The notes under the pieces: generated by a model
Seen by the model: only the letters and a program-made list of their open reading frames with translations
What the model was told of the DNA's origin: nothing
The model's database searches: none
Translations under genes and position numbers: made by a program
Part shown: positions 3,632 through 38,122 of the stretch, in pieces
How positions within the stretch are numbered: position 1 is the first letter of the stretch
How the letters are laid out: the number at the start of each line of letters is the position of its first letter
Source of the DNA: Trichodelitschia bisporula
Taxonomy: Eukaryota
Assembly (NCBI GenBank): GCA_010356995.1
Contig: ML996687.1
Coordinates: forward strand, 1,551,803 to 1,615,802
Direction of reading: 5' to 3'
DNA: 64,000 bases

Positions 3632-3911
3632 TGTCGCGAATGGGGGTCGGAGTGACCTGGATGAGGCAAGGAGCGTGTTGGGCACTGTTGACAATCAGAA
3701 ACTAGTACTTTGGGCTGTAGAATGCGTACATTAGTTGGAGCGTCGGAGAGGCGGCTTTTCTGGTCGCAGGGCATAGTTACATAGGAAATGTTCAACACGG
3801 GCGTTGCTCCGGACTTTCTTTTTTCCGCGTGCGGGAACTTCCTTAGTGGGCAGAGGATCTGGTGGAGTCTGCGGAGAACGGCACACCTCCGACATACGAC
3901 ACCTGCTTCCA

Positions 3912-14750: not shown

Positions 14751-15881
14751 TCAAGCCATCATGACTACAGCAATGTGTAGAAACCCGTCTGCATATGCAG
14801 CCACTTCTGCTAAAGTCTCGACCGGCACGCTCAACGGCACGACAGCTCCATGAAGCACAGGGAGTGCTAGTAAAGGACTGCGGCGGCTCGGAAACAACGT
14901 CGGTAGCAAGGTATTTAGAGCCATTCCAAGGGTCTGGGTTTGTCCTTTGGCTTGATTAGGTGGGAGATGTGCTATCTCTGGCCACTTACGGGTTGATATC
15001 GTAGGTGTAACCAAAGACTGGACCACGCGAAGGTGGCCGGGGCTGGGCTGATCGGTACTGTCTACTGCTGCCGCCGCAGGCAAGTATACCTTCAGAGGAA
15101 TATAACGAAGAGAAACACCCGGAGGATGGAGCAACTTCTGATTTACGCTGTTGAACATGGCGAGGTTTTCTGCCCATAATTAGTCTTCGAATACAAAGCA
15201 TCTGAAAAAGGGCCCCCATCAACGTACGCTGCTCCACGGCCAACCATAGCTTGGTTGAGTCTTCTCGACTGAGCGACATTATAACCTTCCCTGAGCCGTG
15301 TCGCAGAAAACAGGCCTAGATCACCCGATTTAGCAGACGATCGTGGTCGATAAGGGGCGTTTACTTCTTTGACACTGTTCCTGAAAGCATCCCGCAACGC
15401 ATCATTGTCCGGGTCCAGACGAACAAGGTGCTCCGTGGGCCAGTCCGAGAAGTGCAGTGTCAACTTCCACGGCAATATCTCGTCAGGCTGATCTTGCTCC
15501 ACCCCACTTTGGTCATGTAGTTGTTCACTCGCTCCCGAGTAGAGATCGAACAGCAAGCCAACAGGGTAATGCCACTTCAGTGGAACGTCCTCGTAGGAGA
15601 GCCAGCCATCAGCCGGGAAAACGTTTTGGTCGATCAAGGAACTGAAGAAGAACTCATGCAATCGACGGTGAAGCAGTGGGAGGTAAGAGATGCGAGGAAA
15701 ATAGACCTGCATCGATTATTCTGCTTAGCTGTGGCATATATGAAAGGAATATGAGGGACCGTACCAGGTACACGTCGGATTCGTAGGTCTTACTCTCCTG
15801 CTTCGCCAGCCGAATGGCGAGAGGAATGGACCCCGCCCAGAGCTGGGTTTGTAGGGCGCTTGGGGTACTTGCGCCGGCCAT
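14751..15881 (-). CDS. ATG5: Autophagy protein Atg5; 5 exons
   Basis: LWAGSIP, PRISYLP, PLKWHYPVGLLFD, PWKLTLHF, NSVKEA.FLR.G, LHGAVVPL; introns restore frame. Confidence 0.95.
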
Positions 15882-23702: not shown

Positions 23703-26649
23703 ATGGAAAGAGCAGCAACAACATCGTACACTTCTGCCTCCTCGCAACACCCTACCACATCCTATCCGGAGTACACTACGACGACTCCGCTTCCACGCAT
23801 AGGACGCCGGAGAGATGGGAGGTCAGCAGCAGCTCGACCGAGAACGGAGCGTTCAACCATTGCAGACCCGAGTGACGATGTCGTCTGTGCAATCACCGAA
23901 TCTCGCGGTGTCTCCCCAACAGTCGGGCTGGCATTTATCAACCTCGACGTGGGCAGAGCTGTCATTTGCCAGATCAGTGACAACCAGACCTACGTCCGTA
24001 CTCGCCACAAGTTAGAAGTCAATGGTCCTTCTCGCGTGCTGATGCCTTCGACTGCTGCTAACCCGCCATCCAAACTCTTCCATATGGTGGAGGGTTGCGT
24101 GAACAGCATCGGGTCCTCTTTAAGCCTTCTTGATCGTCGCTACTACGACGAAAGTAGCGCACTGGCATACATACGTAACTTAGCTATTGCTGAAGATCTG
24201 GGAGCACTCGATATTGCGGCTAAAGGTAACTACTTTGCCGTCTGTTGTTTTGCCGCCGTGAGTCTTATACTCTACTCCGTACCATTACCGCTGATTTCAA
24301 GTCAGATCATGAAGTTCGTAGAATTTCAGCTCGGCAAGACCTTTCCGTTCCGCTCCTTGAGGGTTGCCTATGAGCCAGCCGAAGGTTCCATGGTGATTGA
24401 CATGCCTACCGTCCACTCACTGGAGTTGATTCAAAATCTCGAAAACCAGAAATCTAAGCAGTGTCTCTACGGCCTCCTTGACGAAACTCTGACGCCTATG
24501 GGATCACGCTTTTTGCGGAGTTGCATTTTGCAGCCGTCAATTGATCCAGATGTCATTGCAAAGCGTTACGATGCCGTAGAAGAACTCACCACCAAGGAAG
24601 ATATGTTTTTCGCCACGAGACAAGGTATGCGCTTTTCGGAGACTTTCTTAACTGATTTTCACAGCACTCAAATCGACATGCGATGCAGAAAAAGTTCTCA
24701 CCGGGGTGAGTAACTGTAGCCATTTTACGCTGCCAGTCTGCTAACGCACACCCAGTTCATCATGATTCATGCCAACCCTTCCACGATTCATACTGAGCAG
24801 ACGATCAACAGGCTTATTATCGTTAAACAATTCGCTGCTTCCATGAGACCAGTGTTCGAAGCCTTGGCGGGAGCCCAAAGCGCTCTTCTTCGCAGCATTC
24901 AGAAGGTGACCTATCGTCCCTTGCGGATCGAAGGGAATACTGACCGAAAGAAAGAACTGTAATCCACGTTGCCTTGAGCCAATATATGAGATCATTGGCC
25001 AGGCAATCAACGAAGACACAGCGTTTGCTAAAAGTCCACTGGAAATGAGAAATCAGCGTATATATGCAGTCAAGTCCGGTGTGAACGGCCTTCTGGACGT
25101 TGCCAGGCAAACCTACAAGGAATCGTCCGAAGACGCGTATCGCCACCTAGAGGATCTGTCAAGTAATGTTGATTACATTGTTACGTCTGTTTACTAACCG
25201 CACACAGATCAGCATAGCTTGCCTTTGGATCTGAAGTATGACAACGCCCGGCAATTTTACATTCGGATCTCGGCAAACGATGTTGGAGACCAGCCTCTCC
25301 CACTGACCTTTATCAATGTCTTCCGGAAGAAGGGTATGATTGAGTGTCAAACGTTGAGTCTGCTGAAGATGAACCAAAAAGTAACATCAACTCCTGGGTT
25401 CACAGTCAGCGTGCTAACTGGCCTTCAGATCTCTGATGCCATCGTCGAAATCATCGCCATGAGTAAGTGCGAGAGGGCATCGTTACAAGTCATCTGACCT
25501 TTCCAAGGCGCCAAAGTTGCACATGAGACCACCCAAGCGGTGCAACAGCAGGTGTCTCTTTTGTTTCGATGCTGCGATAGTATCGCCATGCTTGATATGG
25601 TAAGGAAAATCTTATTCCGCCACTTGCCTGCGCTCATGGGCTTAGCTTGCAGCCTTCGCTCAACTGGCAACTAGTCAAGGCTATGGTGAGTCGAAATCCT
25701 GCAACAGCATATGCGAGCTCACATATAGCCAGTGCGTCCTGTCCTTACGGACACGTTGGCCATCCAAGCCGGTCGCCATCCTATCCGTGAGAAGTTCCAC
25801 TCCCTGAGGTACATCCCAAACGACGTCTATGCAACCCAACAAACGCGGTTCCAGATTATCACGGGGTGTAACATGTCCGGTAAGTCAACATACATCAGAA
25901 GCGTTGCTCTCATGGTTGTTATGGCCCAAATTGGCAGTTTTGTACCCGCTACCTACGCTTCATTCCCTATCAGACACCAACTGTTTGCCCGTGTCAACGT
26001 GGACGACTCTATCGCAGCGAGCGCAAGCACTTTCGCAGCTGAAATGCGGGAGACGGCTTTCATCATGAGGAACATAGACCGTCAGTCGATGGCCATACTC
26101 GACGAGCTGGGCCGGGGAACCAGTACCAGGGATGGTTTGACAATTGCGCTTGCAATCGCGGAAGCATTGGTCGAAAGCCGGGCGCTGGTGTGGTTTGCGT
26201 CGCATTTCCGGGATCTTGCTACCATAATGGCTGAACGCAACGGATGTATCAACCTACATCTTGCCGTTGAAATGAGAGGTGAGGCAGCCATGACTATGAT
26301 GTACAAGATCGCAGAAGGGTACTCCAAGGAGGAGCACTATGGGCTCAAACTGGCTCGAGTCGTCCCTTTGCCTGCCAACGTGCTTCATATCGCCGAGGAG
26401 GTGACGCAAAAGCTGGACAGTCGGGCGAAAAAAAAGCAGGAACATTCTACGGCCGTAATGCGTGAGAGGCGGCGGAAGCTGATACTTAGCCTTAAGGAAC
26501 ATCTGACGCAAGCGGAGCAAGGAACTATGGGCGGAGAAATCTTAGCAAACTGGCTGAGGGAATTGCAGAGGGAGTTTGTGGTTCGGATGACGGCCATTGA
26601 CTCTGAAGCTGAAGGGGCCGATGGAACTGATGCCATGTCCGATTATTGA
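23703..26649 (+). CDS. MSH4: Meiosis-specific MutS homolog Msh4; 10 exons, frame intact across all 9 introns
   Basis: ESRGVSPTVGLA, QISDNQTY, NGLLDVARQTY, ITGCNMSGKSTY (Walker A), STFAAEM, ILDELGRGTS, HYGL; lacks a mismatch-binding N-terminal domain. Confidence 0.93.
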
Positions 26650-32678: not shown

Positions 32679-34035
32679 ATGGCAGTGCAGACTTTGACTA
32701 CAGGAGACAACTTCTTCACCTCATTCAACACTTCCGTTCCGCGGCTTTTCATTACGGCCGAGACGGACACGGAAGAAGAGTTTGATCAAGTCACTTTAGA
32801 GCAATGGAGGGCTGAGGGGTTCAGGGTTACTTACCTTCCCTATGGGAAGGGCAGTCGAGGATACGTGCAAGATTTGGAGAGCATCGGTAGGAATCTAAGT
32901 TTGGGAGACAGCTTTGCTGTTGTAGGTACGTACGGGCTTCATGTCTTCCAACCGTTTTGGCTAAGGGCTATCTCTTGCAGCATTTGGTGATGCAGCAGCA
33001 ACATGCCTTGAAACGTTCCGCAAGTCAACGCGCAAGCTTTGCGCGCTCGTCGCGTACTACCCAACATCGATTCCCGACCCACACTCGTCATTTCCAATTG
33101 GGATGAAAACTTTGGTGCACCTGGCAGGAGAGGAGGTGGGTGTGACGAGGGCACACGAGGTGCTGGGAATCCAAGGGAAGAGGAGGACAACAACGAAGAA
33201 AATACCAAGTGGAACCGGTACAGGCGGGAAGCTCAAGCTGGCATACCCAAGCTACACGTACACTGGGGTGGCCCCCGGGTTTGCGGAGCACGATCTGGAA
33301 GAGTACGACAAAGTGGCTGATCGCCTTGCGTGGTCGCGAAGTCTTGACTGTTTAAGGAAAGCATTCAAGACGGAGGTTGACCTAGAAAGCGTTTGGGAGG
33401 AGCACGTTGAGCGTTAGTATAACTGAAGAGGGTAGCCGAAGGAGCTTCAACTGACAATTGATTCCGCAGTTGAGTTCATGACGCGCGACGCCGACCGAAC
33501 AATGGCCACCATGGTCAATCACCCATACGTCAATCACGTACGTCCTCAACAGATGCGAGACACTTGACATGATACTAACAACTCCGAGGTTCCGGTTCTC
33601 ACGGGAGGTATTGGAAAGAAGGCCCTACATCGCTTTTACCAGGACTTCTTCATCCCTTCAAATCCACCATCCCTCAAGATGAAGCTGCTGTCCCGGACAA
33701 TTGGCGTCGACAGAGTGGTGGACGAGATGTTTACGAGTTTCACTCACTCCCAGGAAATGCCCTGGATCTTGCCCGGGATACCGCCGACGAATAAGCACGT
33801 TGAGGTTGCGCTCGTAAGCGTCGTCTGCATCCGGGGCGGAAAACTGTATCATGAGCACATTTATTGGGATCAGGCTTCGGTGCTCGTGCAAATCGGCCTT
33901 CTGGACCCCAACGTGGTGCCTCAAGCGATGAAAAATAAGGGTGTGGAACGGCTCCCAGTGGTGGGGAAAGAATCGGCGCGGAAAGTACTGGACGAAGACA
34001 GCGTACCGAGCAACGAGTTGGTGACAGACTGGTAG
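32679..34035 (+). CDS. Dienelactone hydrolase-like domain fused to a SnoaL/NTF2-like domain; 4 exons
   Basis: FAVVAFG, LVAYYP, YTYTGVAPGFAE, AWSRSL; then YVNHVP..TGGIG, RVVDEM, LYHEHIYWDQASVL. Confidence 0.88.
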
Positions 34036-34530
34036 TCGGTTCACTGGAGATGTTTGTCTTTTAAATAGTCCCGCAAGTTCCATGAGACGGGAACAGCAGG
34101 GTGGAGAAGACGCGGGCCTGCTAAAACCCCGATTTACTTTCCCACTACATGAAGTAAGCTTCGAGGCCATGGAAGGACACAAGAAGCAGGCATATCGTGG
34201 TGTTTTGACTCGAGACTTTGACTTTTGCTAGACATGAATGCAGAAGTTAACCTGCAGAGGCTTTGGGACGAGAGTTGTCAGCTCTATATCCCTTCCCAGG
34301 TGTTGTGCTAGAACATGCCGCACGTAACCGACGATGGCGACACCTATGTATGCAGTTAAGCGTTGGAAGCCAGCTCGCTCAAGTCTTTAGCGGTTCGATT
34401 GAAGTGTCAAGAGCTGAAGACGAAATTTCTTGTGCTATTTATTGCCCAGCAAGGTCACATGACATGCCAAGACTCTTACGAGTTGGGGCAAGATACCAGA
34501 AAAACTGGGCTCGTTTGTTCGACTCATGTC

Positions 34531-34562
34531 CTTCTTTTCTTCTTCTACTTCTTCTTCTTCTT
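34531..34562 (+). repeat. Imperfect (CTT)n pyrimidine tract, probably a core-promoter CT box
   Basis: cttcttttcttcttctacttcttcttcttctt immediately upstream of the structured RNA. Confidence 0.6.
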
Positions 34563-34579
34563 CATTGACACTTTTCAAT

Positions 34580-34723
34580 GAACGCTCAAATCAACCCGCC
34601 AGTCTTTTAGCTTTCATAGGCCGGCGGGTCAGTCTGAGTTCTAGATCAAACAGCCATGGCACTCTTTAGGCTTTGGAACTGGAAAATCAATGGTTGTTGG
34701 AGCCACCTGCGTGCCGGACATTA
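34580..34723 (+). ncRNA. Box H/ACA snoRNA (two-hairpin pseudouridylation guide)
   Basis: Hairpin 1 34580-34641, H box AGATCA 34643-34648, hairpin 2 34658-34715, ACA 34718-34720; both 3' pocket strands start 14 nt before their box; both pockets pair with conserved LSU rRNA sequence as recalled. Confidence 0.75.
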
Positions 34724-35807
34724 TTCCTTCCAGTCCCTTGAGTCCATCAGGGACCATTTCTGCCGCTTCTTGCGCGCGCTTGAGCTCCTTTTCGAGTGTC
34801 ATAGAGCGCAGAGCGGCAGAGTGACAAGCGTTGGTCGAGCTGGTTGACCCGTAGCCTCGCCAGTGAGTGGCGAGAAGTTAGTTAAAGCTGTAGCCCCACA
34901 GTCTCGTCGCATGAGAACGGCGTCCTTGTCAGCTTCTGCCACTGAAATACCTTCGTATACGGTAGAAGGTGCAGAAAGCGTGAGAACATGACGACCTCAG
35001 CAGGCCGATGACTTTCAGGCAAGCCCAAAAACTGGTAGCGGAAACGAGGCCCAAAGGCGGTCCAAATGTAGCAAAGCACGTTGCATTGCATGTCGAATTG
35101 CAGTCATGAACACTCTCTCCGGTACTGAATAGAACTAGCTCTAGTTCTAGTAGCTCTACAATGCGCATGTGCCGGTAGTGAATATGTATACGGAGGTACG
35201 GATGTATCGTGTGCTTCCGAGTACTGTAACTCATAACCATCTACGGAGTACAACGATTGTTGCGTCGTGCTGTTCTGCGGAGAATAAATTTTGCGTTGTT
35301 ACGCCTCATTGAACTCCGTCCGCCGACTGGACAACCGTCCAAAGAGATTCTGGACAACGAAGGCTGGTTCTAGTCGAGTTCTGGTGGGCGCATCCTCGCT
35401 CGCTCCCTCACTTCCTCACTCCCCAAACAAACCACCCTCCCCCCTCTCCCCCCCGCCCCTCTCCCCCATACCCCTTCTCCTCTGCAGTTTCAAGCCGCCT
35501 CTCCTTTGCGCCTCCAGCTCAATCCCCTCCCACCCCCTCTCTTCGCCGTTGTAGCTCCTCTACATACTATCCTTGTCGCAATTCCTCCTGGAAATCGCAG
35601 TTACTGTACATCTTTTTGACTAGTTACTATGTGGAGCCGCTAAAGCAGCACACGACCAAGCTCCCTGGAGGCCTAGCCGTCCAACGCATACGAAGCAAGC
35701 CCTTGTCCTTGTCTCCCCCGTACTCCATCCTTCCCGCATCAAACAACTTGCGACCTCCCCACCCCGCTGCTGCTCCGAGGTCTTTCTGCGCGCATTCCCA
35801 CCCACTG

Positions 35808-38122
35808 ATGGCATCCACGATCAACAAGCGCCAGCAGGCGCGCAATGAACGCGCTCTTCAGGATTTAATAAAAACCGTTCCTGGCAACGATCGATGCGCG
35901 GATTGCGGCGCGAAGAATCCAGGTTCGTCATCCCCCTAATAGCTTGCGCCGTCGGACTTCCGCTAACTGCCGCATAGGATGGGCAAGCTGGAGCGTACGT
36001 ACTCCCGAGGACCAGCGTGCGATCGCTTTGATTCTGCGGGACTCTCGGCTGACAACACATAGCTAGGAATCTTCTTGTGTCTGCGATGTGCGGCGCTCCA
36101 CCGGAAGCTCGGGACGCACATCTCCAAAGTCAAGTCTTTGAGCATGGATAGTTGGAGCAACGAACAAGTGGAGGCAAGTTTTTGACTCTCTCGTCATCCA
36201 CCTGGACCATATCTGACGTATCCCAGAATATGAGGCGCATGGGCAATGTCGCATCCAACCGAGCGTACAACTCCAGGAACACAAAGCCCTCCATACCCGT
36301 CGATGTCGACGAAGTGGATGGAGTAATGGAGCGATTTATCCGACAAAAGTACGAGCACAAGGTCTTTACGGCCGACTCTCAGCCAGGTTCAAGGCAACAT
36401 ACGGGAAGCACGAGCTCCGATGATCGGCCGCCGCCGCTTCCACCCAAGCCAGCCAAACGCTTTACCCTGGGTCTGCGTTCTACCTCATCAACGCTCCCAA
36501 ACTCTCGTTCCGCCTACAAAACTCCGCCTGTGTCTCCGGGACTGAGCGGGTTCGGGAGCCGTGCGGAATCGCCTCCGAGGAACAAGCCTGCCAAGATCTT
36601 CGGTGCTGAGATTGGTGGCAGTCGGGACGACGGTTTTGAAGCTAAGCTCGCGACTTTACGAGACATGGGATTTCCAGATGAGAAGCGTAACCTGACCGTT
36701 TTGAAGGGTCTGAATGGGAATCTCAACAAAGCCGTTGAAGCACTCGTTCGGCTGGGGGAAGGAGTCAAGGAGCCATCGAGGCAGAACAATTCCGCTCCAA
36801 CATCTGGGATGGTCAATGGTGGATCGATTGAGAAGCAAACTCCTGCTAATAGGGGTAAATTCGCCGATCCTTTTGACCAGCTTGCTCTTCAGGAGAAGTC
36901 ACTGCCGCTGCCTCCAACCCCAGAAATTCAAAGCGATACCGCGGCCTCCTCTTCGAGCTCATACAATCCCTTCCTCCAGCCTGGCCAACCGTCGGGTTTT
37001 CAGCCACAACCTCTTGATCAGGCGTTTCAGAATCTCTCGTTAGGAGCGGCTCAGGCGCCAACCCAGCTCTTCCCTAACTCCACCGGAGGTTACAGAAATC
37101 ACCATGGCATGTCCGGCAACCCCTTTATGCAGGCCTCTACACCCCCCGTTCCTCAAGTACCGCAACAGTACAGTCAGTTCACCATACAGCAGCAGATGCA
37201 CCAACAACAACTCGAGGTGCAACAGCAACAGTATGCGCAAGCTTCAGCACCGAACCCCTTCCTGAGGATGTCCAGGTCCCAGATTTTTAACCGTCCGTCT
37301 CCTTTCGACAATCAGCCAGCGTACACAGCAAGCCATGATTCCGGAGCCCTTCAACAACCCAGCGCCAATGGATACCCATCAACCTTGCAGCATGCCTCTA
37401 CTTTTCCTCTGCAACTGACCCAGTCATCGTCACCACTTCCGAGCCACTTCCAGTCCCAGGTGCAAGCTCCCTCTAATCCGTTCCAGCAGCACCGATCGCC
37501 ATCTCCGAATCCGTTCCAGCAACAACAATTTACGGTTGCCGCTCAACACAACTTCCAGCCAGCCTTCCAGCAGCAGCAGCAGCCACAGCAGCCGCAGCAA
37601 GCGCAGCAAGCTTTCCAGCAAGCACAGCAGACCGGACAACTCGCCCATTTTTCACAGCAGCCGCAAACCATGGCGAACATGCCGCAACCACAAACGCAGC
37701 AGCCTTACCAGAACTTCCAAAATGCCTCCCAGTCTTTCAATGGGTCACAGCATCAGCCAATGCCAATCCGCCACGACAAGACTTCCATACTGGCACTCTA
37801 CAATCTGCCTCACCTTGCCCCGAGCCGTCCAGATGCCTACAGTGTTCCGGCAAGTCTCGATGGCGGGTCAGCGGACGCCCCGACAGGACTTAAGCAACGC
37901 TCGGTAACCATGCCGGTGACTGCTTACGGGCAAGCGGCGCCGAGCGCAAGCAGTACGAATCCCTTTGCCAGCATGGGCGTGCAAGGTGGAGGAGGCGGTG
38001 CATCTGGACAAGCCAACGGCTTCAAGCACGTGAGCACCGAGAGCGTGGACTTCAGCGGAAACCTGATGAGCGGACGGCACAGCCCTGACGCCTTCTCCGG
38101 ACTGAGTGCGCGTATGAGGTGA
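35808..38122 (+). CDS. GTS1: ArfGAP-domain protein with UBA domain and NPF/Gln-rich tail (Gts1-like); 4 exons including a 17-nt micro-exon
   Basis: [44 protein letters not shown] zinc finger, FIRQKYE, UBA MGF, many NPF motifs. Confidence 0.88.

Follow-up and report, generated by a model that had tools for sequence, protein, structure and literature searches.

Positions 34580-34723 (+) of the 64,000-nt stretch of Trichodelitschia bisporula DNA analysed here (contig ML996687.1, hereafter the window) are best explained, with a probability of about 0.8, as an independently transcribed box H/ACA snoRNA gene whose two pockets are aimed at the equivalents of yeast U2652 and U2716 in large-subunit (LSU) rRNA. 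The basis for this reading is the architecture of the locus, its complementarity to fungal LSU rRNA, the rarity of that complementarity, the mapping of both target sites as pseudouridine (Ψ) in a second filamentous ascomycete, and cover by cDNA contigs. The strand of the transcript, its mature ends, its assembly with proteins and the modification of rRNA in T. bisporula are inferred.

Box H/ACA RNAs act through two hairpins with pseudouridylation pockets, in which Cbf5 (dyskerin) isomerises a uridine that is left unpaired. By this mechanism the T. bisporula RNA would fold into two hairpins with one internal pseudouridylation pocket each and would assemble with Cbf5/dyskerin, Nop10, Nhp2 and Gar1. 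The pockets would pair with pre-LSU rRNA such that the target uridine and its 3' neighbour sit unpaired atop the pocket, with 14 nt between them and the H or ACA box, and Cbf5 would isomerise the uridine to pseudouridine. The ACA-proximal pocket (pocket 2) is predicted to address the equivalent of yeast U2652 and Chaetomium thermophilum Ψ2611 (site 2), in H82-H83 at the E site. The H-proximal pocket (pocket 1) would address the equivalent of yeast U2716, C. thermophilum Ψ2675 and human Ψ4263 (site 1), at the base of H86.

The predicted RNA (34580-34723, +) was delimited from its minimum-free-energy (MFE) fold, boxes, spacing and rRNA complementarity, and would measure ~140-144 nt with its ends so deduced. 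A length of 144 nt is below that of most fungal H/ACA snoRNAs, 90% of which span 148-266 nt in the survey of PMC5824354. Hairpin 1 (34584-34639, +) is built from a lower stem, GCUCA (34584-88) with UGAGU (34635-39), and an upper stem, CCCGCC (34595-600) with GGCGGG (34623-28), that carries an apical extension. The internal loop of this hairpin presents the pocket 1 strands, 5' AAUCAA (34589-94) and 3' UCAGUC (34629-34), and the H box AGAUCA (34643-48, +), which matches ANANNA, follows 14 nt past the upper stem. Hairpin 2 (34654-34717, +) has a lower stem of GGCAC (34658-62) with GUGCC (34711-15), plus CC (34654-55) with GG (34716-17), and a long upper stem-loop (34670-34703, +) that begins with GCTTT (34670-74) paired to GGAGC (34699-703). 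Its internal loop presents the pocket 2 strands, 5' UCUUUAG (34663-69) and 3' CACCUGC (34704-10). The ACA box (34718-20, +) lies 14 nt past the hairpin 2 upper stem, and the family rule of a 3' end 3 nt later predicts an end at 34723.

Each pocket is thus separated from its box by 14 nt (34629-42 in hairpin 1, 34704-17 in hairpin 2), where the rule for the class is 14-16 nt. The hairpin-hinge-hairpin-tail arrangement, with a tail of 6 nt, is the outcome of both the unconstrained MFE and centroid folds of 34580-34723. When an H/ACA box arrangement was sought on the minus strand after the same fold, none was found; the boxes occur on the plus strand only. The energy of the fold is unremarkable relative to shuffled sequences (z = -0.97), with 29 of 200 shuffles as stable. 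The hairpins, the AGATCA motif and the ACA box had all been named in a sequence-only reading of this DNA and are present where that reading placed them, and the 14-nt distance it claimed for both hairpins agrees with our count in each. The pocket strings it quoted are also present, except that they overrun into the lower stems by 1-2 nt (A34588; G34711 and U34712). Upstream of the RNA, it had described GTCACATGAC as a palindrome; the motif exists (34454-34463, +) but is an interrupted inverted repeat, GTCA-CA-TGAC, instead of a perfect one, and it is a candidate promoter element by that earlier proposal only. A CT-rich tract of CTT repeats (34528-34573, +), which that reading likewise took as a sign of a promoter, lies directly upstream of the predicted RNA.

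Complementarity to rRNA was addressed by scanning both pockets against every uridine of the SSU, 5.8S and LSU of a complete fungal rDNA unit (L039; LSU with a group I intron, by Rfam annotation), which derives from another fungus and not from T. bisporula. Pocket 2 forms 17 contiguous pairs (9+8; 15 Watson-Crick and 2 G-U) at one LSU uridine, with a runner-up site of 9 pairs. Pocket 1 forms 11 pairs (4+7) at its best LSU uridine, 64 nt downstream of the pocket 2 site, with a runner-up of 7; its duplex energies are -0.8 and -3.9 kcal/mol, and its 5' target arm comprises 4 bp. The LSU targets proposed in the sequence-only reading are present in fungal LSU sequences; they lie 64 nt apart, and for each pocket no other SSU, 5.8S or LSU site in L039 pairs as well.

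How often such matches arise by chance was gauged in two ways, by shuffling the rRNA and by sampling pseudo-pockets at random from the window. An equally good match for pocket 2 occurred in 0 of 3000 shuffled rRNAs, and for pocket 1 in 13 of 3000. The GC-weighted score of pocket 2 was reached by 2 of 20000 random pseudo-pockets, one of which is pocket 2 itself, and that of pocket 1 by 2465 of 20000. Of the 20000, 88 equal the pocket 1 score at a position no more than 100 nt from the pocket 2 site. Because of these shuffled-rRNA and pseudo-pocket counts, pocket 2 is strong alone and pocket 1 is only moderately so.

Structure is needed for the match to stand out. When two-arm rRNA matches of at least 17 pairs were collected with no structure filter and with a loop of 15-80 nt permitted between the arms, the window gave 46 (+) and 31 (-), versus 44 and 39 for reversed controls. 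A filter then demanded that an upper stem directly adjoin the two arms, that a lower stem be present and that an ACA follow 14-16 nt downstream. Pockets of at least 12 pairs that pass this filter number 15 on the plus and 14 on the minus strand of the window, and 13 and 14 on the corresponding strands of the reversed control (56 in total). Only one of the 56 has at least 16 pairs, and it is pocket 2 of 34580-34723, with 17 pairs and stems of 7 and 6 bp; no control exceeds 15 pairs. Fold energy alone or bare complementarity alone is thus no better than chance, and the combination of complementarity with stems and a correctly spaced ACA is rare. Two other candidates were set aside as chance. The pseudo-pocket at 15223-15274 (+) has 17 pairs and scores as pocket 2 does, with an ACA only 11 nt past the 3' arm, and failed the hairpin filter. 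The pseudo-pocket at 26195-26258 (+) has 15 pairs, equal to the best reversed control, and its translation looks like an in-frame segment of an ATPase-like protein.

To place the two uridines in known numbering, we used a Saccharomyces-like LSU fragment (L031), in which yeast positions G2619, U2634 and A2640 agree with the bases in only one register; these positions come from an Arabidopsis/human/yeast table (PMC8351944) together with the naming of m3U2634. In this register site 2 is yeast (S. cerevisiae) U2652 and site 1 is yeast U2716. The same table gives an offset of +1547 from yeast to human LSU. C. thermophilum 26S numbering equals yeast minus 41, as judged from m3U2593 and m3U2802 in the tabulated modifications of PMC12723226 versus yeast m3U2634 and m3U2843. 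By the three-species table, site 1 corresponds to human Ψ4263, Arabidopsis 2707 and yeast 2716, and the table lists this pseudouridine with no yeast counterpart. Modification at human Ψ4263 stands at 98%. Site 2 corresponds to human U4199, immediately 3' of Um4197 and Gm4198, and the table records no modification of it for human, Arabidopsis or yeast. The statement in the sequence-only reading that neither uridine is a known yeast pseudouridine is accordingly borne out as far as this table extends.

Both uridines are mapped as pseudouridines in the filamentous ascomycete C. thermophilum. The pseudouridine table of Wild et al. 2025 (PMC12723226) contains Ψ2611 and Ψ2675 of 26S rRNA, which equal yeast 2652 and 2716 and are likewise 64 nt apart. 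Ψ2675 (site 1) is positive by all four methods in that table, with a nanopore value of 71%. Ψ2611 (site 2) is negative by BID-seq and HydraPsiSeq and positive by nanopore (54% signal) and cryo-EM, and the table comment places it in H82-H83 at the E site, with the loop stabilised to eL42. The accompanying nanopore sheets number one below the pseudouridine table, such that 2610 and 2674 stand for 2611 and 2675, and 2545, 2555 and 2557 for 2546, 2556 and 2558. In the nanopore data of the same source for the mesophile C. globosum, whose positions we placed by the per-position noise pattern, aligning at +72, site 1 reads 76% and site 2 only 1.5%. Site 1 thus emerges as a widely conserved pseudouridine and site 2 as a patchy one. 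By a rough estimate that assumes about a quarter U in 3337 nt, the 63 pseudouridines of C. thermophilum 26S rRNA make up less than one tenth of its uridines.

Conservation of the target sequences was examined in LSU fragments retrieved via a conserved eukaryote primer site that does not overlap the target sequences; at least 40 loci were found, and 40 were examined. Among the 40 matches listed, 34 cover the target region, and 6 of these 34 carry both full matches 64 nt apart (L001, L007, L032, L036, L039 and L040). Plant-like fragments show pocket 2 pairing reduced to 9+5. The Saccharomyces-like fragments L031 and L034 have GCAGAUG in place of GCAGGUG, and the pocket 2 match is wholly lost. 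As a separate observation, this eukaryote-specific site matched at least 40 prokaryote assemblies, and many GTDB genomes and metagenome-assembled genomes (MAGs) therefore carry eukaryotic rDNA contamination. L039 itself is labelled a 'Bryobacteraceae' MAG and holds the complete fungal rDNA unit, the LSU group I intron and then the beginning of another SSU copy. The eukaryote LSU primer site also occurs in L013, a contig of 532 kb from an 'Actinomycetota' MAG.

The locus is intergenic, between a SnoaL-like gene that ends near 34035 and an ArfGAP/UBA (gts1-like) transcript that begins near 35456. Transcript data consisted of contigs from two public runs, X1 and X2, of one sample in one study, compared over 33000-38000. 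Contigs of both flanking genes are devoid of their GT..AG introns, and the runs therefore hold cDNA. The stretch covered at the locus is 34574-35103, on a strand that the contigs do not give, by X1 record 2 (549 nt, depth 5.1, 34574-35103) and X2 record 6 (265 nt, depth 3.4, 34574-34828). These records extend 19 and 10 letters further, respectively, into the CT repeat beyond 34574, and they overrun the ACA box by 105-380 nt. Depth at the locus is 3.4-5.1, versus 101-885 for the neighbouring genes. Positions 34392-34554 and 35104-35434 have no contig among those listed, which marks neither separate transcription units nor a start. Overall, the locus is transcribed at a low level in what is apparently an mRNA-type library, with strand and ends not shown by the contigs. 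The 34574-35103 transcript is possibly a 3'-extended precursor.

The alternative closest to the preferred reading accepts a real H/ACA snoRNA and grants activity to the ACA-proximal pocket only, with hairpin 1 serving a structural role or another RNA. The fit of pocket 1 to the U2716 equivalent would then be a coincidence, aided by a U-rich, internally repeated target, UUGAUUUUGAUUUU. The 4+7 pairs of pocket 1, its weak duplex energies and the ease with which random pockets equal its GC-weighted score all suit such a coincidence, and another snoRNA could serve site 1, as SNORA2A does in human. Yet the predicted site is the sole best one for pocket 1 in SSU, 5.8S and LSU together (11 versus 7 pairs), few shuffled rRNAs match as well, the H box lies at the canonical distance of 14 nt, and the very uridine selected is mapped as Ψ in human as well as in C. 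thermophilum and C. globosum. We consider this single-pocket account improbable, if the most credible of the alternatives.

Two further accounts dispense with the snoRNA altogether. Intergenic hairpins could by chance resemble the class, with ANANNA and ACA motifs and an rRNA complement, and the cDNA could be noise or read-through. The fold energy, the abundance of unstructured matches of at least 17 pairs in window and reversed control alike, and the absence of homologues from the metagenome scan described below are what such a look-alike would give. It would leave one filtered pocket in 56 with at least 16 pairs, next to another canonical hairpin that carries an H box, and it would have two independently predicted targets coincide, 64 nt apart, with mapped Ψ of C. 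thermophilum, where Ψ is estimated to take up less than one tenth of 26S uridines; we regard it as very unlikely. Marginally less credible again is a minus-strand transcript, either a short mRNA for a 53-aa open reading frame at 34802-34644 (-), which overlaps hairpin 2, or a non-coding RNA, with the plus-strand fold incidental. Strandless contigs over 34574-35103 would suit a unit that holds this frame, but the 53-aa product falls in no Pfam family, a comparison with proteins of 29-93 residues gave it no homologue, and a minus-strand unit leaves the boxes, the spacing and the rRNA complementarity unexplained.

Comparison of the locus with described families yielded no counterpart. At the gathering thresholds of Rfam 15, the whole 64-kb window has 0 matches. 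Relaxing the search to E values up to 10 over 34400-34900 returned only five matches, which score 13-17 bits and belong to unrelated families, none of them H/ACA. None of the 20 Neurospora H/ACA snoRNAs in the list of PMC2780460 is assigned to 26S positions near either site, and the pocket 2 strand CACCUGCG is in none of the H/ACA sequences printed there, as compared by eye. The main text of the fungal snoRNAome study (PMC5824354) makes no mention of alignment positions 3869 and 3933 (an offset of +1217), and its supplement may list the family. Gao et al. 2021 (PMC8216456) propose other targets for their four new H/ACA snoRNAs, and the supplement of that study may likewise list the family. A full-text literature search for such a guide returned nothing specific. 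The claim of an undescribed filamentous-fungal guide is in keeping with Rfam, the Neurospora list and the main text of the snoRNAome, with the reservation that the guide may sit in the supplementary tables of PMC5824354 or PMC8216456; a guide for both sites in filamentous fungi is apparently undescribed.

Relatives were sought by a metagenome pattern scan with TCAG-N10-AGA-N{11,25}-YYTTAG-N{25,55}-CACCTGCG-N6-ACA, a pattern that may be too strict for distant relatives. It produced three hits (L044-L046), none with an H/ACA hairpin fold, which we read as chance. A looser pattern applied to five assemblies with eukaryote rDNA also produced three hits, taken as chance. No homologue was recovered by the metagenome scan and the five-assembly scan, which together made up the entire search for relatives.

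Known guides for the same rRNA region offer partial parallels. In human, 28S Ψ4263 and Ψ4282 are guided by SNORA2A (ACA2A), as given in PMC6466398. Like the RNA predicted here, SNORA2A is a box H/ACA double guide with one pocket for the site 1 equivalent (human 4263), and its targets both fall in one short LSU stretch, the same stretch as here. Unlike the RNA predicted here, its second target is Ψ4282 (yeast Ψ2735) and not the U2652 equivalent, and it is hosted by KANSL2 (PMC6466398), whereas the T. bisporula locus is intergenic. Likeness to SNORA2A in sequence or structure was not detected, as no Rfam 15 H/ACA family matches the locus at E values up to 10. In Arabidopsis, the table of PMC8351944 gives snoR97-1/2 as the H/ACA guide predicted for 25S U2707, the pocket 1 uridine, and marks this position as predicted and not mapped. 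The same table gives snoR97-2 for U2964/U2965, which differ from the E-site uridine of pocket 2, and no Rfam match links snoR97 to the locus.

Within the fungi, the yeast H/ACA snoRNA snR189 guides 25S Ψ2735, 19 nt downstream of site 1, and so acts in the same rRNA region with targets that differ from those predicted here, according to the main text of PMC5824354. Nc ACA1-20 of Neurospora crassa (Liu et al. 2009, PMC2780460) are likewise H/ACA snoRNAs of a filamentous ascomycete, and 16 of the 20 are intergenic. Independent transcription is described there as dominant among Neurospora H/ACA genes, and the locus studied here appears to follow suit. Nearly all of the reported Nc ACA1-20 exceed 160 nt, versus ~144 nt for the T. 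bisporula RNA.

H/ACA sets of filamentous fungi are poorly known: the Neurospora survey holds 20 and describes itself as non-exhaustive (PMC2780460), and no H/ACA guides were found experimentally in Aspergillus fumigatus. The C. thermophilum map comprises 112 pseudouridines, and the corresponding text states that H/ACA guides are unannotated and not easily deduced (PMC12723226). The locus provides a concrete candidate guide for two C. thermophilum Ψ sites that have no annotated guide. Since yeast, human, Arabidopsis and C. globosum lack the E-site Ψ, the candidate is relevant to the question of whether each extra pseudouridine of the thermophile is encoded separately.

Tentatively, and at somewhat less than even odds, the locus may be the first of an undescribed filamentous-ascomycete H/ACA family that writes a lineage-restricted Ψ into the E-site loop (H82-H83, contacting eL42). 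If so, the site 2 Ψ would adjoin two nucleotides that are 2'-O-methylated instead in animals and plants (Um4197/Gm4198). The Ψ that the thermophile study counts as C. thermophilum-specific would then be a guide-encoded and phylogenetically patchy trait rather than a side effect of the statistical hyper-modification that comes with high temperature. A distant Dothideomycete would share the trait, and C. globosum would have lost it or never acquired it. A C. thermophilum homologue with an intact pocket 2 would be expected, along with either no C. globosum homologue or one with pocket 1 only. In other respects the gene is an ordinary one of a well-understood class.

The contigs also describe the genes on either side of the locus. 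The SnoaL-like gene has two GT..AG introns, at 33413-33469 (57 nt) and 33538-33588 (51 nt) (+), both confirmed by cDNA joints, and its contigs end at 34260 (X1) and 34391 (X2). The ArfGAP protein is 100% identical to one that NCBI assigns to T. bisporula, its next relatives share only 55-57% identity with it, and T. bisporula therefore represents an isolated Dothideomycete lineage. A C/CT-rich tract (35400-35480, +) lies at the start of the ArfGAP transcript, where contigs begin at 35456 and 35461 and loose poly-C ends occur in X1 at 35435 and 35467. Pyrimidine tracts thus mark two starts of cDNA cover in the interval, the ArfGAP start and the CT tract that precedes the snoRNA. The ArfGAP/UBA gene also contains a 16-nt micro-exon (35979-35994, +), visible in contigs that join 35923 to 36063 via 16 letters unique in the window, and the introns that flank it measure ~55 and 68 nt.
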